DNA of 64,000 bases, from NCBI GenBank assembly GCA_963733065.1, contig CAVTBT010000004.1:271183-335182 (forward strand), in the 5' to 3' direction. Below, piece by piece: positions 20,371 through 54,062 of the stretch. Source of the DNA: an uncultured Gaiellaceae bacterium. GTDB taxonomy: Bacteria; Actinomycetota; Thermoleophilia; Gaiellales; Gaiellaceae. A program made the translations under genes and the position numbers. Position 1 is the stretch's first letter; every line of letters begins with the position of its first letter. The notes below the pieces were generated by a model that saw only the letters and a program-made list of their open reading frames with translations, had not been told where the DNA came from and did no database searches.

Positions 20371-20439
20371 GGGCGGCGGACATCATAGCCGCGTGCTCCC
20401 GGCCCTCCCGAGCCGCGATGTGGCTGTTCAGGACGTACC

Positions 20440-26108: not shown

Positions 26109-27016
26109 GACGCTTCTACCCCCTTGATCAGCGCCGCGACGGCGTCGTTGAGCGGCGTCGGCACACCGTGCTCGCGGCCGAAGCGCGCGATGCCGCCGTT
26201 CAGGAAGTCCACCTCGGTTGCTCGGCAGGCCTCGACGTCCTGGAGCATCGAGGCCTTGTGGTCGTACGCCACCTCCCGCTTCGCAGCGTGGTCGATGAGC
26301 GCCTCGGGATCGGCGTCCAGCTCGATGCCCTGGGCGGCCGCCACGGCCTTGCCCTCGTCGACGAGCCCGCTGACGAGCCGCCGCAGCGCCGGGTTCTCGC
26401 AGACGCGGCCGTGCGTGAGGCCGGTGAGGGCGCCGACCGGGTTCGTCGAGGCGTTGAAGATCACCTTCCGCCACTGCGCCGGCCGGGCATCCGGGACTGC
26501 CGCCGCGGGCATGCCCGCACGCGTGCAGGCCTCCGCCAGCCGCTCGATCTCGTCGCTCCGTGCCGGGCGCGGCTCGAACGGCCCGAAGGTCGTGTCGCCC
26601 TTGACGTCCCACTGCACGTGTCCCGGGCCGAGCAGCTTCCCGGCCGGGAACGTCGTCCCGCGGATCACGCGCGGCACGTGCGCGGCGAGCACCTCCTCGT
26701 TGCCGACGCCGTTCTGAACGGTCGCGAGGGCGCCGTCCGCGAACGCGTGCGCGGTCGCCTCGACGGCGGCCGCGGTGTGCATCGCCTTCGTGGCGACGAT
26801 GCCGAGCTCGCAGGGCGGCAGCTCGGCGGCGTCCCAGGTCGCCCTGGGCCGGCCGACCACGTCGCCCGCGCCGGAGAGACGCAGGCCGGAGGCGTTGATC
26901 GCGTCCACGTGCTCGCGGTACTGGTCGTACGCCCACACCTCGACGTCGTCGAGCGTGGCGAGGTTCGCCGCGAACAGCGATCCGACAGCCCCGCAGCCGA
27001 CCACGCAGATCCTCAT
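26093..27016 (-). CDS. 2-dehydropantoate 2-reductase family oxidoreductase (PanE/ApbA-like), copy 1
   Basis: Contains MRICVVGCGAVGSLFA (Rossmann fold), ..ATKA.., ..SMLQD...R.TEVD..NG.. It overlaps livM by ATGA. Confidence 0.78.
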   Translation of the reverse strand: MRICVVGCGAVGSLFAANLATLDDVEVWAYDQYREHVDAINASGLRLSGAGDVVGRPRATWDAAELPPCELGIVATKAMHTAAAVEATAHAFADGALATVQNGVGNEEVLAAHVPRVIRGTTFPAGKLLGPGHVQWDVKGDTTFGPFEPRPARSDEIERLAEACTRAGMPAAAVPDARPAQWRKVIFNASTNPVGALTGLTHGRVCENPALRRLVSGLVDEGKAVAAAQGIELDADPEALIDHAAKREVAYDHKASMLQDVEACRATEVDFLNGGIARFGREHGVPTPLNDAVAALIKGVEASWTPS

Positions 27017-28059
27017 GCGGTCGCCTCCTGGGTCGCAGGCCCGGGCCGACGGCGCGGTCCGCGGGGCAGCCGCAGCTCCCGCCCACCCGTGAGCCCGGAC
27101 GGCCGCAGGATGAGCACGAGCGCCATCAGGCCGGCGATGACGATGAGACGTGTTCCCGTCGGCAGGTTCAGGTCGACGCCCACGACGCTGACGCCCTGCT
27201 CGGCCTCGCCGAGGAAGGCGTCCACGCCGCTCACGACGAGCGCACCGACGACCGCGCCCCACAGGCTCGACACGCCCCCGACGACGAGCATCGCCAGGGT
27301 CAGGAACGTGAACTCGAGGTACACCTGCTCGGTCGTGATCGAGCCGAGGAAGTGCACGTACAGGCCTCCGGCGAAGCCCGCGAGCGTCCCGCTGAGGGTG
27401 AATGCCCACAGCCGCTGCCGGTGCACGGAGATCCCCACCGCCTGGGCGGCAGCGGGATCCTCGCGTGTCGCGCGGAGCTTCCGGCCGAGCGGGCTGCGCT
27501 GGTAGAGGAACGCGCAGGCGACCACGACGATCGCCCCGAGCGTCGCCTGGCGGCCGGTGGTCGTCTCCGGTACGAGTGAGAGCGTCGTCGCGCCGGGGCC
27601 GATCTTCGTCCATTCGCGCAGCAGGTTGTGGGTGATCTCGAGCACGGCGAAGGTCGCGATCCCCGCTGCCAGGCCGGACAGTCGCATGAGCGGCAGCCCG
27701 ACGAGGAGCGCGAACGCGCCGCCCACCGCCGCCGCCAGGAGCAGCGAGGGAACGTTGCCGATCGTGTGGTCGCGGAGGATCGGGAAGAGATCCGGCAGGA
27801 CGCCGGTCTTGGACTCGAGCGGCACCGTCATCACGCCCGCCGCGAACGCCCCGACCGCGACGAAGCTGACCTGACCGAACGAGAGTACGCCAGAGTTGCC
27901 GATGAACACGTAGATGGCGACGACGATCGCCACGGAGACGAGCGCGTTCAGCACGTGGATCTCGGTCGAGCGTGAAACGACGGTCGAGAGCAGTCCGACC
28001 ACCACCACCAGCACGACGGGCCCGAGCAGCTCGACGGCGGTGTCGACGCGGGACCTCAT
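27013..28059 (-). CDS. branched-chain-amino-acid-type ABC transporter permease (LivM family)
   Basis: Polytopic membrane protein. Its operon position and ATGA overlaps match Liv-type transporters. Confidence 0.82.
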   Translation of the reverse strand: MRSRVDTAVELLGPVVLVVVVGLLSTVVSRSTEIHVLNALVSVAIVVAIYVFIGNSGVLSFGQVSFVAVGAFAAGVMTVPLESKTGVLPDLFPILRDHTIGNVPSLLLAAAVGGAFALLVGLPLMRLSGLAAGIATFAVLEITHNLLREWTKIGPGATTLSLVPETTTGRQATLGAIVVVACAFLYQRSPLGRKLRATREDPAAAQAVGISVHRQRLWAFTLSGTLAGFAGGLYVHFLGSITTEQVYLEFTFLTLAMLVVGGVSSLWGAVVGALVVSGVDAFLGEAEQGVSVVGVDLNLPTGTRLIVIAGLMALVLILRPSGLTGGRELRLPRGPRRRPGPATQEATA

Positions 28060-28967
28060 ACGCGCTCCACGAGTGAGCCGCCGCCTCGGGCGAACAGGCC
28101 GGCCGGCCGCAGCAGCAGCACGAGGATGACGAGCGCGAAGACGACCGACGGCAGGAAGACGGTCTTGTCGGTCGGCAGGGCGCCGTTGATGACGCCGATC
28201 GCGAAGCCGATCGAGAAACCACCGAGCGTCGCCGTCCACAGGCGGTCGATCCCACCGAGGACGACGCCGACGAGCACGACGATCGTGTCGCGGAGCGCAA
28301 AGTCCGGGGCGACGAGCGGGAACTGCACGGTGAGGATCACGGCCACAGTGGCCGCGAGCACGCCGGAGAGCAGCACGGCGAACGAGATCACGCTGTCCGC
28401 GCGCACGCCGAGCAGGCGCGCGGTGCGGAAGTCCGTCGCGGCGGCGCGCATGTGCAGGCCGATTCGGGTGCGTCCGAGGAGCAACGCCAGCAGGCCGAGC
28501 GAGACAACGGCCACGACGATCGCCACGATCGTCACCTTGCGGACGTCGACGCCGCCGACCGTGATCGCCTGGTTGAGGGGCGCCACGGACGCGGCGACCT
28601 CGCCGATCGTCTCGTCGCGCGTGTCGATCAGGAGCGCGACGCTCTCCAGCAGGAACGCCACGGCGAAGGTGGTCACGAGCATCACGGCCGGCGACTGCGT
28701 CCGGAGCGGCCGGAAGACCGCACGGTCCATCGCCATCGTCAGAGCGATGACGACCGCGAAGCACGCCGCGACGCTGCCCGCGACCGGCCACGTGGACGTG
28801 AACGCGAGCGTGTAGGCGCCGGCCATGATCAGCTGCCCGTACGCGAAGTTGATGAGCCGCAGCACGCCGAAGACGAGGCCGATGCCGACGGCCATCAGCG
28901 CATAGACCGAGCCGAGCCCGACGGCGTCGACGATGGTCTGGGCGTCGACGGCGGCGACGATGCTCAC
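28056..28967 (-). CDS. branched-chain-amino-acid-type ABC transporter permease (LivH family)
   Basis: 303 aa and polytopic. Contains LINFAYGQLIMAGAY, typical of LivH. Confidence 0.85.
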   Translation of the reverse strand: MSIVAAVDAQTIVDAVGLGSVYALMAVGIGLVFGVLRLINFAYGQLIMAGAYTLAFTSTWPVAGSVAACFAVVIALTMAMDRAVFRPLRTQSPAVMLVTTFAVAFLLESVALLIDTRDETIGEVAASVAPLNQAITVGGVDVRKVTIVAIVVAVVSLGLLALLLGRTRIGLHMRAAATDFRTARLLGVRADSVISFAVLLSGVLAATVAVILTVQFPLVAPDFALRDTIVVLVGVVLGGIDRLWTATLGGFSIGFAIGVINGALPTDKTVFLPSVVFALVILVLLLRPAGLFARGGGSLVERV

Positions 28968-29680
28968 GAGAGGTAGGCGGCCACCATCCGCTCCGTGTCG
29001 CCGGCGTCGGCCTGGGTCAGGGTCAGCCGGAGCTCGCCGTTCGCGATCAGGTACGTCCGGTCCGCGAGGGCGACGGTCCGCTGCGCGCGCTGCTCGACGA
29101 GCAGCACGGTGACACCTCGTGCGCGGATCGTGCCGAGCGCCTCGAAGACGACGTCCACGAGCCCCGGCGCGAGCCCGAGCGACGGCTCGTCGAGCAGGAG
29201 CACGTCCGGGCTGGCGACGAGCGCCCGCGCGATCGCGAGCTGCTGCTGCTGGCCGCCGGACAGCGCGCCGGCAGGCCGGCGCCGGAACTCGCGGACGACC
29301 GGGAAGAGCTCGTGGACGGCCTCGACGTCTGCGTCGACACCGGCACGCGAGCGGCGGCCGGCGAGGCCTAGGCGAAGGTTCTCCTCCACGGTCATGCTCG
29401 CGAAGATCCGGCGGCCTTCCGGCACGAGCGCTACGCCTGAGCGCGCGACCGCCTCCGGCGACTTGCCGCGGGTGGACACGCCGCCGAGCCGGATCTCGCC
29501 GGCGTGATGCGGGACGAGGCCCATGATCGCGTGCAGCGTCGTGGACTTGCCCGCGCCGTTCGGGCCGATCAGGCCCACGATCTCGCCTCGCCGGGCCTCG
29601 AACGACAGCCCGCGCACCGCGGCGACCGCCCCGTGCCGAACGCCGAGGTCACGCACCTCCAGGACGGCGGCGTCAGTCAT
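28964..29680 (-). CDS. ABC transporter ATP-binding protein (LivF family)
   Basis: Contains Walker A GPNGAGKST, signature LSGGQQQ and Walker B LLLDEPS. Confidence 0.9.
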   Translation of the reverse strand: MTDAAVLEVRDLGVRHGAVAAVRGLSFEARRGEIVGLIGPNGAGKSTTLHAIMGLVPHHAGEIRLGGVSTRGKSPEAVARSGVALVPEGRRIFASMTVEENLRLGLAGRRSRAGVDADVEAVHELFPVVREFRRRPAGALSGGQQQQLAIARALVASPDVLLLDEPSLGLAPGLVDVVFEALGTIRARGVTVLLVEQRAQRTVALADRTYLIANGELRLTLTQADAGDTERMVAAYLS

Positions 29681-30443
29681 CGTGCACCGCGCTCTCGCCC
29701 AGGTAGGCGGCGCCGACGTCCAGGTTCGCCCGTACCTCGGCCGGCGTGCCCTCGGCCAGCGTGCGGCCCTGGTCGAGCACGTGGATCCGGTCGCAGACCT
29801 CCATCACGAGCGCCATGTTGTGGTCGATCAGCAGCACGCCGGCGTTGTGCTCGTCACGGACGGAGCGCACGACGGCGGCGAAGTCCGGCACCTCCGCCTC
29901 AGGGAGCCCCGCCGCGGGCTCGTCCATGAGCACGAACCGCGGCTCCGTTGCCAGCGCCCTCGCGACGCCGAGACGCCGCTCGTCGCCATGGGCAAGCGTG
30001 CCCGCCGATGCGTCCGCGTAGCCGTCCAGACCGAGCAGGCCGAGCAGCTCGTCGGCCCGCGCCCGCGCGGCGCGCGGCCGGGAGCCGACACCGAGGGCCG
30101 CCACCTCCACGTTCTCGCGCACGGACAGCCCCGCGAAGGAGCGGCTGTGCTGGAACGTCCGGGCGAGCCCGGCCCGGCCGCGCCGGTGTGCGCTCCAGCC
30201 GGTGATCTCGCGCTCGCCGAGCTCGACGCGCCCGCTGCTCGGCGCGTCGAAGCCCGAGAGGAGGTTGACGAGCGTCGACTTGCCCGCTCCGTTCGGCCCG
30301 ATCAGGCCGACGACTTCGTGGCGCCGCAGCTCGAGAGTGACGCCGTCGAGGGCGCGTACCCCCTGGAACGAGCGCGAGACGGCGGAGGCCCGGAGGGTCT
30401 CTCCGGGCCTCCTTTCCGACTCAGGTGCGAGCGTCTGCGTCAA
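29673..30443 (-). CDS. ABC transporter ATP-binding protein (LivG family)
   Basis: Contains GPNGAGKSTLVNLL, a signature-like region and FVLMDEPAAGL. Confidence 0.9.
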   Translation of the reverse strand: MTQTLAPESERRPGETLRASAVSRSFQGVRALDGVTLELRRHEVVGLIGPNGAGKSTLVNLLSGFDAPSSGRVELGEREITGWSAHRRGRAGLARTFQHSRSFAGLSVRENVEVAALGVGSRPRAARARADELLGLLGLDGYADASAGTLAHGDERRLGVARALATEPRFVLMDEPAAGLPEAEVPDFAAVVRSVRDEHNAGVLLIDHNMALVMEVCDRIHVLDQGRTLAEGTPAEVRANLDVGAAYLGESAVHDD

Positions 30444-30451
30444 GCGACGTC

Positions 30452-31633
30452 CTAGAGCGTGGGGACGACCTTGGCCCGGACGGCGCCGACGTAGCGCGCC
30501 TTGTTGCCCTCGATCTTGATCACGCGGTACTGCCGCCCGAAGACGGTGTGGTACTGGCGGGAGAAGGTGACCAGGCCCGACAGCGTCGGCACGTTCTTGA
30601 ACTTCTCCAGCTGCGCGGCGAGCCGGATGCCGCTCGTCGACCCACCGGCACGCTTGATTGCGGCGGCGACGCCGTCGATTGCCGCGGCGCCGGTGACGAA
30701 GCCGCCGGTGCCCGCCTTGACCTGCTTCGCCAGCGTGCGGACGGCCTTGTTCGGATCGTCGCCGAAGACCGACGCATAGGTCACGGCGTAGTAGTTCGTG
30801 ACCTGCGGGTTCTTCGGGTTCCAGTACGTGCCGTCACCCGCCCACGAGTTCAGGATCGCGGTGCGATTGCCGAGCGCGCGGAGGCCCGACACGAGCGCCG
30901 GCAGCTCGCCGAACGCCGTCGCCGTCACGATCACGTCCGCCGTGCGGCTGTTCAGCCGGCTGACCGCGTTCTGGACGTTGTTCGCTCCGGTCGCGTAGCT
31001 CTCGCGGGCGGCGATCTTGCCGCCCAGCTGCGTGAACCGCTTGTCGAACGCCTGCACGACGTTCTTGAAGTAGACGAGCAGCGTGTTCGTCGCGAGCGAC
31101 GCCGTCCGCCAGCCCTTGCGATAGGCGTACTCCGCCATCGCCGAGCCCTCGTCCTGGGCGAGGTTGCCGAAGCTGAACGCGAGGCGTCCCTTCGTGCCGA
31201 AGCGCTTCGGCCCCATCTGGTCGGTGCCGATGCACGGCGCCACCGCCAGCACGCCGCGGTTGATCGCCTCCTGCACGACGGGTGTCGCGAAGTCGACGTC
31301 GCACGTCGTGAAGATGACGTGCGAGCCCTGGCCGAGCAGCGACGCCGCACAGGACTTCGCCTTCGCCGGGTTGTTGTTGTTCGTGTCGCAGGTGAGGATC
31401 CGCAGCTGGCGGCCGTTGACGCCGCCACGGCTGTTCAGCTGGTTGACGCGAATCTTCGCGGCGGCCAGGGCAGGCCCGTCGAACGGGGCCATGTTGCCCT
31501 TGCTGTCGTACGCCCAGCCGATCGTGATCGGCGAGCCTCCCTTGCTCGCCGCCCTCACCGAACCGGCGACGACGGCCACGGCCACGGCCGCCGCGACGAG
31601 CACGGCGAGCGCAGCCCAGGTCCTACGTGTCAT
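30452..31633 (-). CDS. ABC transporter substrate-binding protein (LivK / type-I periplasmic binding fold)
   Basis: Start is ATG at 31633 with a signal peptide. It is the first gene of the transporter block. Confidence 0.82.
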   Translation of the reverse strand: MTRRTWAALAVLVAAAVAVAVVAGSVRAASKGGSPITIGWAYDSKGNMAPFDGPALAAAKIRVNQLNSRGGVNGRQLRILTCDTNNNNPAKAKSCAASLLGQGSHVIFTTCDVDFATPVVQEAINRGVLAVAPCIGTDQMGPKRFGTKGRLAFSFGNLAQDEGSAMAEYAYRKGWRTASLATNTLLVYFKNVVQAFDKRFTQLGGKIAARESYATGANNVQNAVSRLNSRTADVIVTATAFGELPALVSGLRALGNRTAILNSWAGDGTYWNPKNPQVTNYYAVTYASVFGDDPNKAVRTLAKQVKAGTGGFVTGAAAIDGVAAAIKRAGGSTSGIRLAAQLEKFKNVPTLSGLVTFSRQYHTVFGRQYRVIKIEGNKARYVGAVRAKVVPTL

Positions 31634-32604
31634 GACGCCCTCCTTGAAGCAGTTGACCCTTCTGGAACCGGTCCCTCGGACTCGGCCGACCACGACGCCT
31701 CCCTCGCCTTGATCAGCCTGTACATCGCTTCGTGCAGCGGTACGGGCACGCCGAGGCGCTGGGCCTCGCGCACGAGCGAGCCCGTGATGAGATCGACCTC
31801 CGTCGGCCGCCGGGCCTCGACGTCCTCCAGCATCGAAGGGTAGTGGGCGCTCCCCCTCCGCGTGGCGAGCACGTTCATCTCCCACGGATCGTCGTGTAGC
31901 TCGACCCCCGCGGCGGCGGCGACACGCTTGCCCTCCTCGACGAGCTCCTTGACGAGATGCCCAAGGTCGGTCGGCTCGTCGAGCTCGGCGAAGTGGCGGT
32001 CGTGCGGGAGCCCGGTCAGCGCGGCGACCGCGTTGACCGTGGCGTTGAAGATCAGCTTCGACCACTGGGCGGGCAGCAGGTCGGGCAGCGCCTCGGCCTT
32101 CAGGCCGGAGCGCTCGATCAGACCGGCGATCTCCTCGACCGTCTCGAACGACGTGTCCTCGTACGGGCCGAGCCACGTCGGCGTGTCGAGGATGTACTCC
32201 ACGTGGGTGTCGTCGTGGCGCGTGCCGCTCATGAACGTGACGGCGGAGACGATGGGCCAGTTGCCGCGGCGGCGGACGACCTGCTCGGCGCCGAGGCCGT
32301 TCAGCACCGGCATCACCGTGGCGCTCCGGAAGTGGCCGGCCATCGCTGCGGCGGCCGGCTCGAGGCCGGGCGCCTTCGTCGCCACGATCGCCAGGTCGGC
32401 GGGCTCGAGATCGCCGGGATCGTCGCTGGCCGTGACGGTCGCAGTGAAGTCGGACCGACCCGAGACGCGGAGCCCCTCGGTGTTCAGGGCGTCGGCGTGC
32501 TCTCGGCGTCGCGTGAGCACGCTGACCTCGGCCTCCCGGGCGAGGTGCCCGGCGAAGAGGCTGCCGATGACCCCGCCTCCCACGACGCAGACTCGCTCGA
32601 TCAG
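31630..32604 (-). CDS. 2-dehydropantoate 2-reductase family oxidoreductase (PanE/ApbA-like), copy 2
   Basis: Contains VCVVGGGVIGSLFAGHLA (Rossmann fold) and ..SMLEDVEARRPTEVD.. The start is uncertain: there is no ATG/GTG/TTG upstream of the Rossmann strand. CTG at 32604 forms a CTGA overlap with the LLM stop; GTG at 32583 is the alternative. Confidence 0.7.
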   Translation of the reverse strand: MIERVCVVGGGVIGSLFAGHLAREAEVSVLTRRREHADALNTEGLRVSGRSDFTATVTASDDPGDLEPADLAIVATKAPGLEPAAAAMAGHFRSATVMPVLNGLGAEQVVRRRGNWPIVSAVTFMSGTRHDDTHVEYILDTPTWLGPYEDTSFETVEEIAGLIERSGLKAEALPDLLPAQWSKLIFNATVNAVAALTGLPHDRHFAELDEPTDLGHLVKELVEEGKRVAAAAGVELHDDPWEMNVLATRRGSAHYPSMLEDVEARRPTEVDLITGSLVREAQRLGVPVPLHEAMYRLIKAREASWSAESEGPVPEGSTASRRAS

Positions 32605-33686
32605 ACCCCGACCGCCTCCGACTCCCGCGCGCGGGCCGCGAAGTGCGGGACCACGCGGCTCGCGAACAGCTCCTGATTCTTGATCGCCTGCCAGTGGTCG
32701 GCGCCGCCCGCGTTGACGGTGATGCCGATCTCGCCGATCCCGGTACACGTCTCGAGCGTGGCCTCGATGCGCTCGATCACGTCGTCGGGCGTCCCCACCC
32801 AGACGTAGTCGTCGGCCACGAGCTGCTCGAACGGGATCTCGACGAGCGACTCCATGATCCCCGCGGTGTAGAAGCCGTAGTCGGCCTTGATCAGGTCGTC
32901 CTTCGGCGGCTTGTCGTATTCGATGAGCGGCGACGAGTTTCCGGCGATGAACCCCAGCATCCACTCCTTCGCCTCGCGCATCGCCGTCTCGCGGTCGTCG
33001 TCCAGGTGCACGGCGTGGATCCACACGATGTCCGGTTCGGTGCCGAACTCGGCGCACTTCTCGCGATAGAGATCCATCTGCTTCTCGAGCGCCGCGTACG
33101 GGAGCAGCGGCGGCACCGCCACCGACCAGCCGTGCTCGGCGGCGAGCTCGTAGGTGCGATCGGACGTGCCGCCGAGCGTGACCCGGAACTTGCGGTCGGG
33201 GAACGGGATGATGTGCGAGTCGCCAACCTGGAAGTACTCGCCGCTGTGGGAGAACCGCTCGTTCGCGAGCGCCTCGAAGAGCAGGTCGACGGCCTCCTCG
33301 TACCGCGGCCGCGCGTGCTCGTCGAGTGGCACGCCCGCCTTGGGCGGGATCCAGCCGTGGCCGCGTCCGACTCCGAACTCGTAGCGGCCCTGCGTGAGGA
33401 TGTCCGTGACGGCGATGGCCGAGGCCAGGACGGTCGGGTTGTGGAACGGCAGCGCGTGCAGCATCGTCCGGAAGTTGATGCGCTTCGTCCGCTGCGCGGC
33501 GGCGGCGAAGAGCGCCGTCGGGTTGGCCGAGATCGAGAACTTCGGGAAGAAGTAGTGCTCGATGACGGCGTAGACGTCGTAGCCGAGCCGGTCGGCGTTG
33601 ACCATCTGCTCCAGCACCTCGTCGTACAGCTGCTCCGGCGATTTCCCCGGATGCAGCTGGATCTCCGAGTACAGGCTGAACCTCAC
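32601..33686 (-). CDS. LLM-class (luciferase-like) flavin-dependent oxidoreductase
   Basis: Reads (M)RFSLYSEIQLHPGKSPEQLYDEVLEQMVNADRLGYDVYAVIEHYF... Start is GTG at 33686, 9 nt after AGGAGG. Confidence 0.8.
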   Translation of the reverse strand: MRFSLYSEIQLHPGKSPEQLYDEVLEQMVNADRLGYDVYAVIEHYFFPKFSISANPTALFAAAAQRTKRINFRTMLHALPFHNPTVLASAIAVTDILTQGRYEFGVGRGHGWIPPKAGVPLDEHARPRYEEAVDLLFEALANERFSHSGEYFQVGDSHIIPFPDRKFRVTLGGTSDRTYELAAEHGWSVAVPPLLPYAALEKQMDLYREKCAEFGTEPDIVWIHAVHLDDDRETAMREAKEWMLGFIAGNSSPLIEYDKPPKDDLIKADYGFYTAGIMESLVEIPFEQLVADDYVWVGTPDDVIERIEATLETCTGIGEIGITVNAGGADHWQAIKNQELFASRVVPHFAARARESEAVGV

Positions 33687-33704: not shown

Positions 33705-33718
33705 GTGTGACATGTCTC
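33705..33718. promoter_or_regulatory. operator-like palindrome copy 1 (GTGTGACATGTCTC; 9/10 match to TGACATGTCA)
   Basis: Lies between the putative -10 and the Shine-Dalgarno sequence of the LLM/ABC operon. Confidence 0.55.
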
Positions 33719-33740
33719 GGGCGAGGCGGAGTATCCCGCG

Positions 33741-33754
33741 GTGTGACATGTCAC
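33741..33754. promoter_or_regulatory. operator-like palindrome copy 2 (GTGTGACATGTCAC), flanked on the minus strand by -35-like TTGACG (33752-33757) and -10-like GATACT
   Basis: Perfect palindrome, 36 bp centre to centre from copy 1. Confidence 0.6.
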
Positions 33755-33837
33755 GTCAATGGCGCATATCGGCTACGCCGACTGCGCCCAGGAACTCCCG
33801 TGCGGAGCCGCCTGGGCTTTCTGGGCGGTTCTCGCCG

Positions 33838-34233
33838 TCAGGCGAGAACCGCCGTGACCTCGATCTCGATCACGCACCCGGGCACGGCCAGCCCGGTGAC
33901 GCCGACGATCGTCTGCGCCGGATGCTCCGCGCCGCCGGTGACGTCGTCGATGGCGCGCGTGATGGTCTCGTACTCGGTCGGCTGGAGCGTGTAGATCGTC
34001 CGGCGCACGACGTCGTCCCAGCCGACCCCGGCCGAGTCCATCGCCACCTTGACGTTCTCCATCGCCTTGCGCGTCTGGCCGTAGAGGTCGTCGGCCGCGA
34101 GCGAGAAGTCCTGCTCCAGCCCGAGCTGGCCCGCGAAGTGGACGACCGCCGTGCCCCGCGCGAGCGCCACGTGGCTGAAGCCGGGCGCCGGGTGGAGGTC
34201 GGGCGGGTTCGACAGCTCACGGTGGTGGGACAT
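33838..34233 (-). CDS. RidA family protein (YjgF/YER057c/UK114)
   Basis: 131 aa. Contains ..HFAGQLG.. and ..IVGVTGLAVPGCVIEIEVTAV.., typical of RidA. Confidence 0.85.
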   Translation of the reverse strand: MSHHRELSNPPDLHPAPGFSHVALARGTAVVHFAGQLGLEQDFSLAADDLYGQTRKAMENVKVAMDSAGVGWDDVVRRTIYTLQPTEYETITRAIDDVTGGAEHPAQTIVGVTGLAVPGCVIEIEVTAVLA

Positions 34234-35410
34234 GTCGCGCTCCTCTCGCCAGTCGTCTGAACTCCGAGTCGGTCACGAGCCCGCCCTTGCGCACGCCGAG
34301 CGCCTTGACCTTCGCCAGCACGTCGGCGTAGCGCTCCTCCGGCAGGTCGACGCCCAGTTGCTCGACCTTGATGCGGATCGAGTCGAGCCCGCTCTTCTTG
34401 CCGAGCACGATGCCGCGCTGTGCGCCGATGAGCTCGCCGGCGTACGGCTCGATGGCCGGTGGATCGTGGAACTGCGCCGCGACCGCACCCGATTCGCGCG
34501 TAAAGAGATTCTCGCCGGTGACGGGCTTCCACGGCTCCAGTGGCGTGCCGGCGGTCTCGGCCACCAGCCGGCCGAGCGCGCGTGCTCGCTCGAGCCGCAG
34601 CCTCGTCGGGATGGCGTAGAGGGCCTCGAGCGCGAGCGCCACCTCGAGCAGGTTCGCGTTCCCGCCCCGTTCGCCCATCCCGTTGATCGTCCCCTGCACC
34701 CAGGTTGCGCCGGCCTGCACTGCGGCAACCGCAGCCGCGGTCGCGAGCCCGAAGTCGTCGTGGCCGTGCCAGTGCACCGGAAAGGCGTCGCCCAGCCACT
34801 CGACCACCGAGCCGACGAGGAACGCGGCAGCCTCGGGCGTCGCGACCCCGAGCGTGTCGACGACGACGACCTCGCGAGCGCCCGCCTCGACCGCCGCCTC
34901 GTAGGCCTCGCGGACGAAACCGAGGTCGGCACGCGTGCCGTCGACGCCGAAGTAGGCGACGGTCACTCCGGCGGCGCTCGCCGCACCCACGGCCGTCCGG
35001 ATGCGGTCCAGCATCGTCTCGCGCGTGACACCGAGCGCCGCGAGCTTGGCGTCGGAGATCGGGCTCTCGACCACTGCGGCGCGGACGCCCAGCTCCGCGA
35101 GCGCCTCGACGTCCGCGGGCACGGCGCGTGCGAAGCCCCAGACCTCGGCTTGCAGATCTTCCTGCATGATCAGGCGAATGGCCTCGGCGTCCTCCTCCGA
35201 GACGCGGGGAAAGCCGGCCTCGATGCGGTCGATTCCGGCGTCGTCGAGCGCCTTCGCGATGGTCACCTTGTCCTCGGGCGACAGCACCACGCCGACCGTC
35301 TGCTCACCGTCGCGGAGCGTCGTGTCGTAGAGCCCGACGGTCACGTGCGGCTGCGGTTCCAGCGCACGCCGGTTCAAATCGCCGGTCCAGACCTTCGAGC
35401 GGTCGAGCAT
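34217..35410 (-). CDS. HMGL-like (DRE-TIM) carboxyltransferase / homocitrate-citramalate-isopropylmalate synthase family enzyme
   Basis: Contains LYDTTLRDGEQ, HWHGHDDFGLATA and GTINGMGERGGNA motifs. Confidence 0.75.
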   Translation of the reverse strand: MLDRSKVWTGDLNRRALEPQPHVTVGLYDTTLRDGEQTVGVVLSPEDKVTIAKALDDAGIDRIEAGFPRVSEEDAEAIRLIMQEDLQAEVWGFARAVPADVEALAELGVRAAVVESPISDAKLAALGVTRETMLDRIRTAVGAASAAGVTVAYFGVDGTRADLGFVREAYEAAVEAGAREVVVVDTLGVATPEAAAFLVGSVVEWLGDAFPVHWHGHDDFGLATAAAVAAVQAGATWVQGTINGMGERGGNANLLEVALALEALYAIPTRLRLERARALGRLVAETAGTPLEPWKPVTGENLFTRESGAVAAQFHDPPAIEPYAGELIGAQRGIVLGKKSGLDSIRIKVEQLGVDLPEERYADVLAKVKALGVRKGGLVTDSEFRRLARGARHVPPP

Positions 35411-35469
35411 GAACGGACTATCGCATCGCGCGCTTGTCGCCTGCCGTCTACTGCCGGATACTCACGCCC

Positions 35470-36762
35470 GTGATCTTCGAGCCCGGCGTCGAGACGATGC
35501 CGCGCGAGCAGCTCCGTGAGCTGCAGGTGCAACGCCTCCGCGGGGTCGTGGCAGCCGTGAAGGACGCGGTGCCGCTGTACCGCGAGCGCCTCGCGGACGT
35601 CGAGTCGAACGGCATCCGTGCCCTCGACGACCTGAGCCGGTTGCCGTTCACCCGCAAGGACGACCTGCGCGACACCTATCCGTTCGGCCTGTTCGCCGTG
35701 CCGCGGGAGCGCATCGCGCGCCTCCACGCCTCGTCGGGGACGACGGGCAAGCCGACGGTCGTCGGGTACACCGCACACGATCTCGACGTCTTCGCGCGGG
35801 TCGTCGCGCGCTGCCTCGCCATGGCCGGCGCGGAGCCGGGGATGACGCTGCACAACGCGTACGGCTACGGCCTCTTCACCGGCGGTCTCGGCCTGCACGA
35901 CGGCGGCGGCCGCCTCGGGCTGTCGGTCGTGCCCGTGTCCGGGGGCATGACGGAGCGGCAGGTGACCCTCATCGCCGACCTGCGCCCGGACGTGATCGCC
36001 TGCACGCCGAGCTACGCGCTGACGCTCGTGCAGGCGCTCCACGACCACGGCCTCGTGCCGCAGGAGATCAGCCTCCGCTTCGCCGTGCTCGGAGCAGAGC
36101 CGTGGACCGAGCGCATGCGTGACGACATCGACGCCGGCCTCGGCGTCCGCTGCACGAATCTCTTCGGGCTCTCCGAGATCATCGGCCCCGGCGTCTCCGG
36201 GGAATGCGTGGAGGCCCGAAGCGGCCTGCACGTGAACGAGGACCATTTCTTCCCGGAGGTCGTCGACCCGGAGACCGGCGCGCAGCTCGCGGACGGCGAG
36301 GAGGGGGTGCTCGTCATCACGACGCTCACGAAGGAGGCGCTGCCACTCGTCCGCTACTGGACCGGCGACCTCACGACGCTGACCTCGGAGCCCTGCGCCT
36401 GCGGCAGGACACTCGTCCGGATGGGGCCGATCGTGGGCCGGACGGACGACATGCTGATCGTGCGCGGCGTCAACGTCTACCCGTCGCAGGTGGGAGCAGT
36501 GCTGGGCAGCCTGCCGGAGCTGTCGCCGCACTTCGGCCTCGAGGTGCGCCGCGAGGGCACGCTGGACGAGGTCGAGGTCGTCGCGGAGCTGACGACCGAC
36601 GCTGCAGCCGCAGCCGACACCGCGCTGCAGCAGCGTGCCGAGCAGCTCCTCAGGGAGACGATCGGCTGCACGATGCACGTCCGGCTCGTCCAGCCCGGCG
36701 AGGCACCCCGCTCCGAAGGCGGCAAGATCCAGCGGGTAAGCGATCTGCGCACCCGAGCCTGA
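35470..36762 (+). CDS. phenylacetate-CoA ligase family (PaaK / coenzyme F390 synthetase-like) adenylate-forming enzyme
   Basis: Contains LPFTRKDDLRDTYPFGL, HASSGTTGKPT, YGLSE-like FGLSEIIGPG and GRTDDMLIVRGVNVYP motifs. Confidence 0.8.
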   Translation: MIFEPGVETMPREQLRELQVQRLRGVVAAVKDAVPLYRERLADVESNGIRALDDLSRLPFTRKDDLRDTYPFGLFAVPRERIARLHASSGTTGKPTVVGYTAHDLDVFARVVARCLAMAGAEPGMTLHNAYGYGLFTGGLGLHDGGGRLGLSVVPVSGGMTERQVTLIADLRPDVIACTPSYALTLVQALHDHGLVPQEISLRFAVLGAEPWTERMRDDIDAGLGVRCTNLFGLSEIIGPGVSGECVEARSGLHVNEDHFFPEVVDPETGAQLADGEEGVLVITTLTKEALPLVRYWTGDLTTLTSEPCACGRTLVRMGPIVGRTDDMLIVRGVNVYPSQVGAVLGSLPELSPHFGLEVRREGTLDEVEVVAELTTDAAAAADTALQQRAEQLLRETIGCTMHVRLVQPGEAPRSEGGKIQRVSDLRTRA

Positions 36763-36801
36763 CCCACCCCCGGTGGTGGAGCCTCGGCGTGGAGCGCGTT
36801 G

Positions 36802-37176
36802 CTAGGGGCGAATCTCTTGCAGGATCCAGCTGTTGCCGTCCGGATCGCTGAAGAACGCGAACAGGAACCCGCCCAGGTCGCGCGGCTCGCTGATCTCGAC
36901 CCCGCGCGCCACGAGCTCGTCGCGCGCGGCGGCCATGTCCGTGACGACCAGCTGGAGACCCTCGACTGATCCCGGCTCCATCTGGGAGAGCCCGGTGCCG
37001 ATCGCGATCGAGCAGTACGAGCCGGGCGGCGTCAGCTGCACGACCCGCATCCCGTTGTCGAAGCTCCGGTCGTGGTCGGCGTTGAACCCGACCTGGTCGG
37101 TGTAGAACGCCTTCGCGCGGTCGACGTCCGCGACCGGAACCTGCACCACCTCGAGCCTGAAGTCCACGCCGGCCAC
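36802..37176 (-). CDS. VOC (glyoxalase/bleomycin-resistance/dioxygenase) family protein
   Basis: Contains ..AKAFYTDQVGF.. and ..FFSDPDGNSWILQE.. Start is GTG at 37176. Confidence 0.7.
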   Translation of the reverse strand: MAGVDFRLEVVQVPVADVDRAKAFYTDQVGFNADHDRSFDNGMRVVQLTPPGSYCSIAIGTGLSQMEPGSVEGLQLVVTDMAAARDELVARGVEISEPRDLGGFLFAFFSDPDGNSWILQEIRP

Positions 37177-37219
37177 CTTACGCGAGCTCGGCGAGGCGAT
37201 CGGTGAGCACGACTCGGTG

Positions 37220-38437
37220 CTAGGCGGCGATGATGCCGTCGGGGAACGGCGAGAGCTGCTCGACGCCGCTCTCAGTGACCAGGAAGTTGTCCTCGACCCG
37301 GAGTCCGCCGCCCTCCGGCCAGTAGACGCCCGGCTCGATCGCGAGCACCATCCCACTCTCGACGGCGCCCCCGCCCGCCTGGTGGGCGTAGGGCGGCTCG
37401 TGCGCGCGGGCGCCGACGCCGTGAGCGATCGGATGCGACGGCTGACCGGGGTAGCCGGCCTCCGCGATCGACCGTCGGCACTCGCGGTCGAGGTCGGCGA
37501 GGCTCGCCCCCGGTCTGACCAGGCTGGTTGTGGAGGTGTACACCTCCATCAGCGCCTGCTCGAGCTCGCGGTAGCGGTCCTCGAGCTCGCCGCAGACGAG
37601 GTTCTTCGTGTGGTCGCACCAGTAGCCGTCGGCGCAGACCCAGATCTCGAAGAGCGTCGGCTGGCCCTCGACGACCGGGCGGTTGGACGTCGCCGTGAAC
37701 GTGCGGATCCCGGGCCCGGACCACACGAGCGAGAAGCCGAGCGCGAGCTCGACCGCTCCACCCCAGCCGGTGCCTTCGCCGTGCACGAACCCCTCCCACT
37801 CCGCCGCGACCTGGGCCTCCGTCAGGCCCGGCCTGATCACCCCTCGTACGTGATCCATCGCCGCCGCGGCGATCTCGTTCGCGAGTCTCATGCGCGCGAT
37901 CTCCTGCTCGGTCTTGATCGCGCGCGCCTCGTTCAGGAGCGGCGTCGCGTCGTCGGCCTCCGGAAACGCGTCGAACCACGCCTTCGGGTACGTCGTCGGC
38001 TCGCCGACCATCCGGTCCGCGGCCTGCGTTCCCATCGAAAGCTCGAGGCCCACGCGGCCGAAGCCGCCGGCGATCTGACGGGCAAGATCGAGCGTGCGGA
38101 GACCCGGCGGCCTCGGGTCGGTCTCGGCGTAGCCGGCGAAGAAGCGCACGTCGCTCGTCCACGCCATCCGGTCGGCGTCGGCCTCCGAGGCCTCGAGGCA
38201 GATCAGCACTGGGTCGCCGTCGCGCGGGAAGACAACGGCGTCGTAGCCCTTCATCCCCCAGAAGTTCGTGAGGTACAGGACGTTGTCGGGCGCGCGCACC
38301 ACGAGCGCATCGAGGTCGTACTGGCCCATGAGCGCACGGACGCGGTCGAGCTTCGGATCGTCGCGCGGCCAGGTCATCGACTGCGCCGCAGCCGACAGCC
38401 GCGCGCCGAGAGCGCCGAATCGGCACAGATCCGACAC
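37220..38437 (-). CDS. M24 family metallohydrolase (Xaa-Pro dipeptidase / creatinase-like), copy 2
   Basis: Contains YDLDALVVRAPDNVLYLTNF, ..IKTEQEIARMR.., ..HPIAHGVGARAHEPP.. and ..LAIEPG..RVED.. An alternative start is at 38377 (MTWPRDD). Confidence 0.75.
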   Translation of the reverse strand: MSDLCRFGALGARLSAAAQSMTWPRDDPKLDRVRALMGQYDLDALVVRAPDNVLYLTNFWGMKGYDAVVFPRDGDPVLICLEASEADADRMAWTSDVRFFAGYAETDPRPPGLRTLDLARQIAGGFGRVGLELSMGTQAADRMVGEPTTYPKAWFDAFPEADDATPLLNEARAIKTEQEIARMRLANEIAAAAMDHVRGVIRPGLTEAQVAAEWEGFVHGEGTGWGGAVELALGFSLVWSGPGIRTFTATSNRPVVEGQPTLFEIWVCADGYWCDHTKNLVCGELEDRYRELEQALMEVYTSTTSLVRPGASLADLDRECRRSIAEAGYPGQPSHPIAHGVGARAHEPPYAHQAGGGAVESGMVLAIEPGVYWPEGGGLRVEDNFLVTESGVEQLSPFPDGIIAA

Positions 38438-38543
38438 GAACGCGTGCGGATGTCATGGGTATCGTCGATCGCCGAGGGAGGCGGGAAGGCGCCCCACCCA
38501 GGGTGGGGGTGCGCTTGCGGCGACGCGCCCCGCAAAGTGCGCG

Positions 38544-39410
38544 TCACCACCGGACGCGGGCAGGCGCCGGCTCGCCGTGCGCCTCTTGCCACGACACGAC
38601 GGGGTTCCGCAGCACGCCGATGCCTTCGATCTCGCACTCCATCACGTCGCCCGGGCGCAGATAGAGCGACGCGGCATCCTCGGAGAAGCCCGCCACCCCG
38701 GACACGGTCCCCGTCGAGACGACATCCCCCGCGGAGTAGCCGAGCGCCGAGTAGTGGCTCACGATCTCCGGGATCGTGACGCTCATGTTCCCCGAGTGCG
38801 ACGTCTGGCGCGGGGCGCCGTTGACGCGGAGCTCCATCCGCAGATCGTGCGGATCCGGGATCTCGTCGGGCGTGACGATCCACGGCCCGAGCGGACAGAA
38901 CGTGTCGATCGCCTTGCAGAAGCTGAACACGCCCGACCGCATCTCGCGTCGCTGGATGTCTCGCGCCGTGATGTCGTTGAAGATCACGTAGCCGGCCACG
39001 TACTCTGTTGCCTCCTCCGGCGAGAACCACTTCCCGGCCTTGCCGATCACCACGGCGAGCTCCAGCTCGTAGTCGAGCTCCTCCGTCAGGTGCTCGGGGT
39101 ACACGACCGGATCGTCCGGGCCGACGATCGCGTCGACGTTCTGGAAGAACACGATCCAGGGCGCGATCTCGTGGGTCCAGCCGATGGTCTTCGACTCCTC
39201 CTCGTGCTCGCGGAAGTTGCCCGCCGTGTGGAAGAACTTCTTCGGGACGATCGGAGCCCGGAGCCGGGCCCCCTCGAGTGCGACGCGCTCGCCCGTGTCC
39301 GCCGCGCCGCCGCGCTCGAAGTACTCACGCATCGTCGCGACGTCGAGGACGGCGATCTCGTCGCCGTCGACGCGGCCGACGCGGCCCTCGCCGAACGTGA
39401 CGAGCTTCAT
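38544..39410 (-). CDS. fumarylacetoacetate hydrolase (FAH) family protein
   Basis: Starts MKLVTF. Contains ..DYELELAVVIGK.. and ..STGTVSGV.. Overlaps the M20 gene by ATGA. Confidence 0.85.
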   Translation of the reverse strand: MKLVTFGEGRVGRVDGDEIAVLDVATMREYFERGGAADTGERVALEGARLRAPIVPKKFFHTAGNFREHEEESKTIGWTHEIAPWIVFFQNVDAIVGPDDPVVYPEHLTEELDYELELAVVIGKAGKWFSPEEATEYVAGYVIFNDITARDIQRREMRSGVFSFCKAIDTFCPLGPWIVTPDEIPDPHDLRMELRVNGAPRQTSHSGNMSVTIPEIVSHYSALGYSAGDVVSTGTVSGVAGFSEDAASLYLRPGDVMECEIEGIGVLRNPVVSWQEAHGEPAPARVRW

Positions 39411-40606
39411 GCAGCGACCCCGCACACCTTCATCGCTGCCCGAGCGTAGACCTCGGCCGTCTTGACGAGCCCGTCCACGGCCAGGTTCTCTCCCAGCTCC
39501 GCGTCGGGGAGCCCGCTCGACGTGCCGTAGTTGACCGTCTCGATGCCGTAGCGCGTCAGCACGGAGGCGTCCGAGAACCAGCGCGTCACGTCGCGTTCCG
39601 GCTCGGCGCCGAAAACATCCGCGTGCGCCTCGGCAAGCGAGCCCACGAGTGGGTGCTCGTCGTCGATCCGGGCCCCGGGCGCGGTCACGTACACCTCTGC
39701 CTCCACCCCGTCCAGACCGCGTGCCCACTCGAGCGCCGTCCGCCGAGCCTCCGCCATCGACACGTCCGGCGGGACGCGCAGGTCGAGGAACAGCTCCGTG
39801 GCATGCGGCGTTCGTGAGGCGCGCCAACCGAACCCGCCGCCGATCGCACCGAGGTTGGCCACGCCGCGGACGTCGCCGTAGGACATCCGCTCCTCCCAGG
39901 TCGGCAGCCACTCGAGCACCGTGTCGATCACGGAGCGCATCTTCACGATCGAATTCTCCTGCAGGCGGCCTGAGGAGAAGGCCGTGTGGATGAACGGGCC
40001 GCGCACGCACAGCCGCAACCACAGCGCGCCGAAGTGTGCGAGCACCAGCTTGTTCTCGGTCGGCTCGCCGAGGATGCAGACGTCCGCAGCCCCTCCGTGC
40101 CCGACGAGGTAGCGGGACCCGGCGGCGTAGCCCCGGTACTCGGCGCCCTGGGCGTCGCCCTGCTGCGTCTTCTCGATCTCGCCGCAGACGGCGGCGATCA
40201 TGACGTCGCCCCGCAGCCGCACACCCGCGTCGCGCAACGAACGGACGGCCTCGGCGTAGCACGCAAGCGCGCCTTTCATGTTCGAGATGCCGAGCCCGTA
40301 GATGCGCCCGTCGCGCTCGAAGCCGGCCGGCTGAAAGCCCGGAATGCCGGCGAGCCACGGCTCGCGCCCGGAGTACGACGTGTCGAGGTGGCCGTTGAAC
40401 ATCAGCGTCGGCCCGCCACCCTCGCCCGGCCACGTACCGAGCACGTTCGCGCGCCCGTCCTCGACCTGCTGCCACTGGACGCCCAGGCCGACGGCACGCA
40501 GCTCCTCCTGCATGACGCGAGCACACGCCTCTTCCGAGCCGGTGAACGAAGGCGTCGAGACGAGCCGCACGGCGAGGTCGACGAGTCGGCGGGCATCGAT
40601 CTTCAC
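39407..40606 (-). CDS. M20 family metallohydrolase (ArgE/DapE/ACY1/CPG2-like deacylase)
   Basis: Contains ..LMFNGHLDT.., ..GISNMKGA.. and ..GEPTE.. Start is GTG at 40606 after GGGAGGAG. Overlaps the upstream gene by GTGA. Confidence 0.8.
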   Translation of the reverse strand: MKIDARRLVDLAVRLVSTPSFTGSEEACARVMQEELRAVGLGVQWQQVEDGRANVLGTWPGEGGGPTLMFNGHLDTSYSGREPWLAGIPGFQPAGFERDGRIYGLGISNMKGALACYAEAVRSLRDAGVRLRGDVMIAAVCGEIEKTQQGDAQGAEYRGYAAGSRYLVGHGGAADVCILGEPTENKLVLAHFGALWLRLCVRGPFIHTAFSSGRLQENSIVKMRSVIDTVLEWLPTWEERMSYGDVRGVANLGAIGGGFGWRASRTPHATELFLDLRVPPDVSMAEARRTALEWARGLDGVEAEVYVTAPGARIDDEHPLVGSLAEAHADVFGAEPERDVTRWFSDASVLTRYGIETVNYGTSSGLPDAELGENLAVDGLVKTAEVYARAAMKVCGVAA

Positions 40607-41439
40607 GCGCTCCTCCCGGCTGCGAGTTTGACAGCGACCGGCACCGCGAAGCCGTCTCCCGTCCGATGCTCCTCGAGGAGCTCGTCGAAGCGACGTCGTA
40701 TCTCGTCCTGCATCGCCTGGCTCTGAGAGAGCACGAGGGGCCGCACGCGCACGGTGCCGTCCACGAGACCGTGCCAGAGCTCGTCGGCGCTCACCAGCGG
40801 CAGCATGAAGTCGACGGTTTCGACCCGCACGTCGACGAGACCGGCGTCGCTCAGCAGGCGCGAGAACGTCTGCTCGTCCGCGAAGCGGAAGATCGGCGGC
40901 CCGGCTGGAAGGTCGTCTGGCGGGGTCGCCCCGGCGGCGGCGACCGCGTCCAGCAGCAGGCCGAGCCACCGGGCGCGCGCAGGGTCGTCCCAGACCGTGA
41001 ACGCCGCCAGGCCGCCGGGCACGAGCACCCGAGCGGCTTCGGCGGCAGCGTCCTCCGGCCGACCGAGGTGGAGCAGAAGGAACGCGGCGACGTAGGCATC
41101 GAAGGACCCATCGGCGAACGGCAACGATGTCGCGTCACCCGCGACGAACTCGACCTCGGGGTGGCGCGACCTCGCGAACGCGAGCATGGCCTCGGAGCGG
41201 TCGAGCCCAACCGCCTCGGCCCCTCGCGCCGCGGCGCGGCCAGCAACGTAGCCCGGCCCCGTGGCGACGTCGACGATACGCGTCCCGCGTTCGGTCCCGA
41301 CCGCGTCGAGCAGCGGATCGGCGAGGCGCGCCGTTGCTCGACCGGCGAGCTGGTCGTACCGCGCCACCTCCTTCGCCGCCCACCCCTCCGCCTCGAAGTC
41401 GTCGAACGCGTCCGCGTCGTACCCGTGCTGGTCGCTCAC
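40603..41439 (-). CDS. class I SAM-dependent methyltransferase
   Basis: Contains motif I VDVATGPGYVA and ..LVPGGLAAF.. Overlaps the LLM gene by GTGA. Confidence 0.75.
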   Translation of the reverse strand: MSDQHGYDADAFDDFEAEGWAAKEVARYDQLAGRATARLADPLLDAVGTERGTRIVDVATGPGYVAGRAAARGAEAVGLDRSEAMLAFARSRHPEVEFVAGDATSLPFADGSFDAYVAAFLLLHLGRPEDAAAEAARVLVPGGLAAFTVWDDPARARWLGLLLDAVAAAGATPPDDLPAGPPIFRFADEQTFSRLLSDAGLVDVRVETVDFMLPLVSADELWHGLVDGTVRVRPLVLSQSQAMQDEIRRRFDELLEEHRTGDGFAVPVAVKLAAGRSA

Positions 41440-42470: not shown

Positions 42471-42475
42471 GTCAC
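42464..42475. promoter_or_regulatory. operator-like palindrome copy 3 (GTGACATGTCAC) overlapping the LLM start codon; -10-like TAGGGT at 42480-42485 (minus strand)
   Basis: Perfect 12-bp palindrome. TAGGGT ends 9 nt before the ATG, a leaderless arrangement. Confidence 0.6.
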
Positions 42476-46000: not shown

Positions 46001-46596
46001 GCCAGCGAGGCCGGACTGCCGACGTCTACGAGCTCGTCGCCACCACGGCGCGCGACTACCCGGCCCGGCCGGTCTTCCGCAGTGGGCTCGCACGCGTCGC
46101 GCTCGAGCTCGGCCGTCACTCCGAGGCCCGAGAGCTGTTCGAGGAGCTCGCCAGTAACGACTTCCACTCGGTGCCACGCGACAACGAGTGGCTGCTCGCC
46201 GCCAGCTACCTGACCGACGTCTGCGTCGGCCTCGGTGACGTCGTGCGCGCCGGCACGCTCTACGACCTCCTCGAGCCATCCGCGGTCAAGGTCGTCAACG
46301 ACGTGGCCGAGGGGTGCGCCGGGTCGGTGCAGCGTCTCCTGGGCATGCTCGCGGCGATGCTTGGTCGTAAAGACCAGGCCGTCGCCCATCTCCGTGCCGC
46401 GATCGAGCGGAACACCGAGATCGGGACGACGCCCTGGGTGGCGGAGGCCCGAGTCGAACTCGCGGAAGTGCTCCTCGGCCTCGGCGAGCGCGAGGAGGCC
46501 GAGCAGCTGCTCGACGACGCGTGGGCGACGGCCGCCGAGCTCGGCATGGTGCCGCTCTCGCGGCGCATCGAGCTCCTCCGCCGCGCGTCGCCCTAG
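43086..46596 (+). CDS. SARP/AfsR-type regulator (OmpR-like wHTH + BTAD + AAA/NB-ARC ATPase + TPR), with an apparent +1 frameshift at ~44039
   Basis: Contains [11 protein letters not shown].., BTAD ([15 protein letters not shown]..), Walker A GEAGIGKS and a long TPR tail. Frame 1 ends ..EVAARAQ and the next frame continues [25 protein letters not shown]. Length equals 3n+1. Confidence 0.8.
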
Positions 46597-47067: not shown

Positions 47068-47073
47068 GATGCG

Positions 47074-51419: not shown

Positions 51420-51431
51420 GTGACATGTCAA
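51420..51431. promoter_or_regulatory. operator-like palindrome copy 4 (GTGACATGTCAA) in the 56-bp divergent region between the coxM-like and CrtI-like genes
   Basis: On the minus strand it reads cTTGACATGTCACgg, so a perfect TTGACA -35 (51426-51431) is embedded, with TTAGAT (51401-51406) 6 nt before the coxM-like ATG. On the plus strand TAGGGT (51437-51442) lies 8 nt before the ATG at 51451. Confidence 0.6.
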
Positions 51432-54057: not shown

Positions 54058-54062
54058 CAGCG

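Follow-up and report, generated by a model that had tools for sequence, protein, structure and literature searches.

Classical palindromic repressor operators, such as those of the TetR, MarR, GntR and LacI families, are dyad-symmetric sites restricted to promoters, in which they overlap the –35 element, the spacer, the –10 element or the start site; moreover, one site can be common to divergent promoters, one promoter can carry two sites, and several operons can share the same site. Each of these traits appears to recur in the 10-bp palindrome TGACATGTCA, the subject of this study, which was found in a stretch of 64,000 nucleotides from an uncultured Gaiellaceae bacterium (contig CAVTBT010000004.1, positions 271,183 to 335,182; the whole of this stretch is referred to as the window). 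In contrast to those operators, its invariant unit measures only 10 bp, without a spacer, and none of 42 motif-bearing sequences has a cognate regulator gene next to a site. The Gaiellaceae, actinobacteria that abound in soil, have hardly been brought into culture, and to our knowledge no regulon has been experimentally defined in this family.

Among the described systems, LacI-type operators are palindromes of 14–16 bp with a central CG step, whereas the present palindrome keeps only 10 bp and has AT at its centre. CRP/FNR sites read TGTGA-N6-TCACA or TTGAT-N4-ATCAA. One copy in the window (copy B, see below) reads TGTGACATGTCAC and recalls the TGTGA/TCACA arms, and the original prediction, made from the letters of the window, had compared the palindrome to such a CRP-type pair with a shortened spacer. 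This likeness dissolved upon wider comparison, since every site has the cores TGA-CATG-TCA (i.e., a 4-base rather than a 6-base spacer), the TGTGA/TCACA arms are not conserved (neither the outer TG nor the outer CA being kept over 82 sites), and the site positions would fit repression better than class I or class II activation. Operators of ribbon-helix-helix (RHH) proteins are alike in being short spacerless palindromes of 8–11 bp with a CATG- or ACGT-type centre, e.g., the MetJ met-box AGACGTCT. The RHH protein ArtA of pSK41 binds ACATGACATGT-type sites, and its operator oligonucleotide TTGTCATGACATGTCATGTGTAA even contains TGACATGTCA (PMC2777438); ArtA is, however, a staphylococcal plasmid protein with no link to Gaiellaceae, and the analogy is one of operator size only. 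The UrtR group of MarR regulators (HucR, PecS, MftR), which respond to uric acid, has the 18-bp palindromic consensus T-xx-CT-N8-AG-xx-A, and one UrtR crystallisation oligonucleotide contains GACATGTC outside the recognised bases (PMC11602129). The theme is alike in that these repressors control genes including xanthine-dehydrogenase-family enzymes (purine/urate catabolism), but the consensus differs and no MarR gene lies near the sites described here. As a bacterial operator, TGACATGTCA was not found in the searchable literature, where other matches were, judged by title, p53 or primer sequences. The palindrome is best filed as a further example of an ordinary kind, the palindromic operator lying across the core promoters of a catabolic regulon, with no new regulatory principle involved.

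Copies of the palindrome in the window

A pattern search revealed four exact copies of TGACATGTCA in the window and a fifth with one mismatch:

33708..33717, operator copy A: one mismatch, TGACATGTCT (gene-strand reading AGACATGTCA); proximal site of the LLM_A promoter
33744..33753, operator copy B: exact TGACATGTCA; distal site, promoter of the LLM_A/ApbA/ABC operon
42465..42474, operator copy C: exact TGACATGTCA; at the LLM_B start
51421..51430, operator copy D: exact TGACATGTCA; common to two divergent promoters (cox-like and amine-oxidase-like)
60980..60989, operator copy E: exact TGACATGTCA; between the flavin reductase (minus strand) and cupin (plus strand) genes

At the window's G+C content of about 71%, base composition predicts some 0.0095 exact copies in 64 kb, in agreement with an earlier hand estimate of about 0.01. 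When up to one mismatch was allowed, 5 matches were observed against 0.53 expected, and 0 of 100 dinucleotide-preserving shuffles reached 5. Pattern search and shuffles thus bear out the recurrence at five promoter-proximal sites that the original prediction had put forward, albeit with corrected coordinates (two of the five had been placed right, the other three one base too low). All five copies are situated at operon starts, either outside gene calls or at the edge of a call.

Likeness among the copies is confined to the palindrome itself. The 60-nt flanks of the five copies share an identity of 0.19–0.39, compared with 0.29 ± 0.06 for random 60-mers, and the 12-mer GTGACATGTCAC, earlier taken as the motif, is exact at only two sites (33743–33754 and 42464–42475), with one mismatch at the other three. 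At the two-mismatch level, 5 extra matches appear in the window where about 8 in total are expected by chance, so that the weak partial matches listed earlier are no commoner than chance and belong to the background. One of these, CGTCATGTCA, overlaps the start of a small open reading frame (ORF) at 63134–63400 (88 aa, minus strand; DUF2188-like as judged from its sequence only) and is a two-mismatch match consistent with chance.

Genes in the window were called from third-position G+C bias and annotated with Pfam, which agreed with the gene assignments made previously. The five copies would control the following units:

27013..33686, minus strand: putatively regulated operon 1, with LLM_A, an ApbA-like reductase, a periplasmic binding protein, two ABC ATPases and two permeases
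33838..42470, minus strand: putatively regulated operon 2, with LLM_B, an S-adenosylmethionine (SAM) methyltransferase, an M20 deacylase, a FAH-family hydrolase, an M24 hydrolase, a glyoxalase-like protein, an HMGL/IPMS-like aldolase and RidA
46593..51394, minus strand: putatively regulated operon 3, with a coxM-like flavin adenine dinucleotide (FAD) subunit (50576–51394), a coxS-like 2Fe-2S subunit, a coxL-like molybdopterin subunit, CoxG and a small ORF
51451..54121, plus strand: putatively regulated operon 4, with an amine-oxidase/CrtI-like flavoprotein (51451–53073) and an AP_endonuc_2 protein (xylose-isomerase-like TIM barrel)
60472..61417: putatively regulated divergent pair, flavin reductase 60472–60969 (minus strand) and cupin 60989–61417 (plus strand)

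LLM_A (32601–33686, with a GTG start behind GGAGG) and LLM_B (41436–42470) are both luciferase-like oxidoreductases, and the start of LLM_A at 33686 was placed by its Shine-Dalgarno spacing and its orthologues. The ABC transporter of operon 1 is of the branched-chain type, an AMP-ligase gene (35434–36762) lies on the opposite strand inside the span of operon 2, and coxMSLG, encoding a cox-like molybdenum hydroxylase, spans 47074–51394. The flavin reductase is 165 aa long as called in public records. In NCBIfam, none of the cluster's enzymes reached an equivalog cut-off.

Conservation of the palindrome among Gaiellaceae

For comparison, 84 related Gaiellaceae sequences were assembled (1.47 Mb, 85.5% coding by our own gene calls; individual sequences are denoted by L numbers). 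Three loci came from exact-protein look-up and 80 more from one scan of reference genomes; the latter loci, each at most 21 kb and centred on LLM_B, come nearly all from different species representatives. Homologues of LLM_B at about 90% identity number in the hundreds, and those bearing an organism name are labelled as Gaiellaceae, Actinomycetota or Actinobacteria metagenome-assembled genomes (MAGs). The gene order coxMSLG – LLM_B – M20 – FAH – M24 – aldolase – (RidA) – (LLM_A) – ApbA – ABC is kept in 80 loci, and the divergent arrangement of the cox-like operon and the amine-oxidase-like gene is likewise conserved.

The relatives contain 67 exact and 15 one-mismatch copies of the palindrome, where composition predicts about 0.2 exact ones. 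According to our gene calls, 80 of these 82 copies are intergenic (65 of the 67 exact and all 15 one-mismatch copies), while the remaining two lie 65 and 146 nt inside over-extended gene calls in a standard promoter context. A motif equally dense inside genes had been set beforehand as the outcome that speaks against an operator; instead, all 82 copies were found at promoters, and the 8-mer core GACATGTC occurred 2 times in coding and 76 times in non-coding sequence, i.e., at a 183-fold higher density in the latter. Conservation upstream of orthologous operons had been the other touchstone, and the palindrome is kept there in 41 further Gaiellaceae sequences, nearly all of them separate species representatives. 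Coding versus non-coding density and orthologous-promoter conservation together support the proposal of a candidate operator at promoters of catabolic operons.

In the cluster loci, every copy falls where one of the operons of this conserved cluster begins, and three classes of sites can be distinguished: (i) between coxM and its divergent neighbour (an amine-oxidase-like or SnoaL-like gene), (ii) upstream of LLM_B, only where inserted genes part LLM_B from coxG, and (iii) upstream of LLM_A or ApbA. Where an insertion has cut off LLM_B from coxG, the operon start so created often carries a copy, albeit not in every such locus; the window is one case, and L009, L040, L045, L047, L053, L055, L062, L072 and L075 are others. 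A second, proximal copy, usually AGACATGTCA, is present where LLM_A is present; 7 of 10 orthologous LLM_A-proximal sites carry this same variant. One other species (six redundant contigs, L124–L129) keeps the window's flavin reductase/cupin site as CTAGTCTGACATGCCATG, at the same position and with one mismatch, ahead of a cupin with 71% identity.

In a symmetrised profile of the 82 sites, only the ten core positions are invariant, around the central step AT, and the flanks show no more than a weak bias against A at the left and against T at the right. Since the sites were chosen by the 10-mer, the core conservation is partly circular; the lack of flank conservation remains informative, and it led us to drop two longer candidates for the functional unit, namely the 12-mer and a CRP-like 14-mer. 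From the aligned letters, the conserved unit is the 10-mer.

The sample also includes species in which the palindrome is missing. Their cox promoters read TTGACAggcc or TTGACAcggg ahead of an unchanged TTGAATC element, and their ApbA promoters read TTGAC-TGACGTGGAG or TTGAC-TGACATCGGA ahead of an unchanged GATACTC, so that the –35 and –10 elements are kept and the right half-site has decayed; the natural motif-less counterpart of TGACATGTCA is TGACAGGCCA. This retention of the core promoter upon loss of the right half-site indicates that the palindrome is separate from the –35 element. Among 30 genomes with both promoters available, the palindrome was present at both in 21, at cox only in 3, at ApbA only in 0 and at neither in 6. 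Such joint loss at unlinked promoters points to a factor acting in trans, which some lineages possess and others have either lost or never had, or have redirected to other sites.

Two observations on motif-less loci stand apart from this comparison. In one motif-less species (L003:18405–19153), a different GntR/FCD gene is inserted divergently before LLM_A, and the intergenic region has TTTGAT...TGATCA...GTCAAA repeats in place of the palindrome, which suggests that the same operon may have come under another regulator. Furthermore, two contigs of a single MAG (MFD04850.bin.2.263; L012 and L024) each carry the whole cluster, both without the palindrome, reflecting either a duplication or a mixed bin.

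Promoter geometry and competing readings

At operon 1, a predicted sigma-70-type promoter was found at 33730..33759 (minus strand), consisting of the –35 hexamer TTGACG (33759–33754), an 18-nt spacer and the –10 hexamer GATACT (33735–33730); the scan returned 1 such promoter where 0.1 was expected. Copy B forms the first 10 nt of its spacer, while copy A has the –10 element on one side and LLM_A's Shine-Dalgarno sequence on the other. The distal sites of 24 orthologous ApbA/LLM_A promoters follow the pattern TTGACTGACATGTCA-N8-9-GATACTC, with the palindrome at the same position. From start coordinates, the distal-to-proximal spacing varies between 33 and 41 bp (centre to centre), suggesting that it is set by promoter elements and not by helical phase.

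Copy C follows a TAGGGT –10-like hexamer (42485–42480, minus strand) at a distance of 5 nt, and its core CAT (42468–42470) is the ATG start codon of LLM_B. This arrangement recurs as TAGGGT-N4-5-TGACATGTCA in 11 orthologous LLM_B promoters, 9 of which have the core ATG in frame as the start. On the minus strand, copy D provides the TTGACA (51431–51426) that would serve as –35 of the cox-like operon, and on the plus strand it ends 6 nt before the TAGGGT –10 (51437–51442) of the amine-oxidase-like gene. Accordingly, the 34 orthologous cox promoters read gCTTGACATGTCA...(C/T)TGAATC-N5-6-ATG, in which the left half of the palindrome plus the preceding T makes a perfect TTGACA –35, and the divergent gene opposite cox has a TANNNT hexamer (TAGGGT or TAGAGT) 5–6 nt from the palindrome. 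Since the cox –35 and the divergent –10 both fall at copy D, one site could control both directions. At copy E, a TAGTGT –10-like hexamer (60975–60980) reaches into the palindrome by one base, and the cupin ATG (60989–60991) begins at the palindrome's last base. Depending on the promoter, the palindrome thus appears to overlap the –35 element, the –35/–10 spacer, or the region between the –10 element and the start codon.

TANNNT hexamers lie 0–6 nt from copies C, D and E. The coxM-like (51394), amine-oxidase-like (51451), LLM_B (42470) and cupin (60989) genes are without a Shine-Dalgarno sequence and have a TANNNT- or TGAAT-type hexamer 5–9 nt ahead of the start codon, which suggests that leaderless transcripts may be common in this Gaiellaceae lineage. 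In several relatives (L016, L023, L060, L068 and L070), the TGA that opens the palindrome is the stop codon of an upstream HMGL-like gene, and in others (e.g., L025, L031 and L033) the HMGL stop codon is found in the preceding TTGAC instead.

We consider it likely that TGACATGTCA is the operator of a twofold-symmetric (dimeric) factor, most probably a repressor encoded outside the window, that controls the conserved cluster. Because the site appears to overlap a core promoter element, a bound protein would block RNA polymerase. A dimeric repressor would bind TGACATGTCA over the predicted core promoter elements of the cluster and shut out the polymerase from four promoter regions that serve a single pathway, i.e., those of the cox-like and amine-oxidase-like operons, the LLM_B operon, the LLM_A-ApbA-ABC operon and the flavin reductase/cupin pair, until a substrate or intermediate of the pathway releases it. 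Such an inducer is postulated, as are the promoter and transcription-start assignments.

A number of points weigh against this reading. The promoters are assigned from sequence, and a strict sigma-70 scan with an E. coli-type consensus was passed by one of the four promoters (LLM_A) and failed by the other three. Repression rather than activation is deduced from the geometry of the sites. A 10-bp palindrome without spacer is short for a typical helix-turn-helix (HTH) dimer, and no regulator gene was consistently adjacent to the further copies in the 42 motif-bearing sequences, nor was a binding protein identified. The concordance between cox and ApbA promoters (Fisher p = 1.4e-4) is given without phylogenetic correction, and the comparison covers about 20 kb per genome, so that the regulon may be larger.

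If the factor is no typical HTH dimer, the spacerless 10-mer might be read by a small RHH/beta-sheet binder, or by a Thermoleophilia-specific protein, that is encoded apart and has been repeatedly gained and lost between close Gaiellaceae relatives, with the operators decaying in step; to this version we give a small chance. The surroundings of the sites showed no small RHH gene, though ORFs below 90 aa were not searched systematically.

That the palindrome is instead an activator site seems unlikely. The candidates would be the SARP/BTAD, LuxR-TPR and cyclase-AAA-TPR-HTH regulators near the cluster, and such large signal-sensing regulators do adjoin it in many species. Moreover, homologues of the cyclase-HTH protein were seen only in motif-bearing loci, in three of which (L002, L009 and L049) its gene ends the amine-oxidase operon that shares the operator, and 5 motif-bearing loci, but no motif-less locus and not the window, encode a LuxR-TPR protein of 542 aa. 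However, a protein bound over the –35, in the spacer, at +1 or at the start codon would be expected to obstruct RNA polymerase and not to recruit it, and motif-less species retain good –35 and –10 elements, so that the promoters seem independent of an activator. SARPs bind direct repeats, which does not fit a palindrome, and they occur in motif-less loci too (e.g., L080). The cyclase-AAA-TPR-HTH regulator is disfavoured as well: although restricted to motif-bearing loci, it is frameshifted in the window near 57615 and truncated before its HTH part (an assembly error is possible), and yet the five sites are intact.

We regard it as very unlikely that the binder is an in-cluster GntR/FCD regulator of 244 aa, which some species encode within the LLM_B operon. 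GntR/FadR-type operators are short palindromes, and the GntR/FCD gene was found in motif-bearing loci only (L040, L062 and L066), downstream of the LLM_B-promoter site where context exists (L085, L086 and L117). Nevertheless, only 3 of the 42 motif-bearing sequences contain it and the window does not, TGACATGTCA lacks the GT...AC arrangement typical of GntR operators, and in a metagenome scan nearly all homologues whose upstream region could be read (58–91% identity) carried TGCATGCA or TGCATACA there and no TGACATGTCA. An in-operon GntR/FCD gene autoregulated through the same site was not found.

Still less probable, if only slightly so, is that the motif is the core promoter itself, e.g., a symmetric –35 that serves both directions or a site read by an alternative sigma factor. 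The TTGACA formed by the left palindrome half in the cox promoters speaks for such a reading, but the palindrome takes different positions with respect to the –10 element and the start codon (at the –35, within the spacer, beyond the –10 or in the 5′ untranslated region), the ApbA promoters have a separate TTGAC directly upstream of it, and orthologous promoters without the right half-site still keep their –35 and –10.

Finally, chance recurrence, the end of a dispersed repeat or mobile element, a hairpin and a restriction-modification target can together be dismissed with near certainty, for although a short palindrome containing the 6-bp ACATGT is the kind of sequence that restriction enzymes cut, a restriction target would not be limited to the promoters of one gene cluster, chance is excluded by the excess over expectation in the window and its relatives, a dispersed repeat or miniature inverted-repeat transposable element would share more than the core (the flank identity is that of background), and the 10-mer alone does not fold (0.0 kcal/mol predicted) and in the cox promoters lies upstream of the transcript.

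Under the preferred repressor reading, the palindrome offers a delimited cis-element with defined targets, i.e., a molybdenum hydroxylase, two F420/flavin mononucleotide (FMN)-type luciferase-like oxidoreductases, amidohydrolases and an ABC transporter. The series of presence and absence among close relatives could reveal the regulator by phyletic profiling and, in turn, the substrate of the pathway. The apparent leaderless promoters with operators over start and stop codons would also be useful for annotating these MAGs.

Candidate regulators and further features of the window

The original prediction had described a regulon without an assignable regulator, and this statement stands. It had also noted the lack of a small HTH gene next to any site; indeed none is adjacent, but three large regulator genes do occur in the window:

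43086–46596: SARP/BTAD-AAA-TPR gene, split into the overlapping frames 43086–44138 and 44110–46596
54680–56605: BTAD-TPR gene
56653–58423: cyclase-AAA gene, with the frameshift mentioned above and without the C-terminal TPR-HTH part

The disrupted SARP/BTAD-AAA-TPR and cyclase-AAA genes could be pseudogenes or could reflect long-read indel errors.

Several further candidates for the binding protein were set aside. The 176-aa gene divergent from coxM encodes a SnoaL-like enzyme rather than a regulator, and two conserved cluster proteins of 208 and 176 aa are without a Pfam match and occur in motif-bearing and motif-less loci alike. An Lrp/AsnC regulator in L124 has an intergenic region without a site. 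The regulator is probably encoded elsewhere in the genome.

The GntR/FCD protein of 244 aa, disfavoured as binder of TGACATGTCA, has another palindrome at its own start. In L084–L120, TGCATGCA or TGCATACA is situated about 20 nt upstream of the GntR/FCD start in nearly every readable homologue, and many have a second, related copy about 80 nt upstream (e.g., L085:5260–5352). This type of palindrome is probably the GntR/FCD regulator's own operator, which would constitute a second regulatory layer within the LLM_B operon.

Elsewhere in the window, the stretch 18600–20400 has a G+C content of 0.67, lower than the rest, and yielded no convincing gene call; it adjoins a tRNA-Leu gene (20287–20370, minus strand), and an element once integrated there may have left it behind. 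ARAGORN also called a 92-nt tRNA-Gly at 45082–45173 (minus strand) within the SARP coding region, which is probably a false positive, while the tRNA-Asn at 63549–63622 looks genuine.

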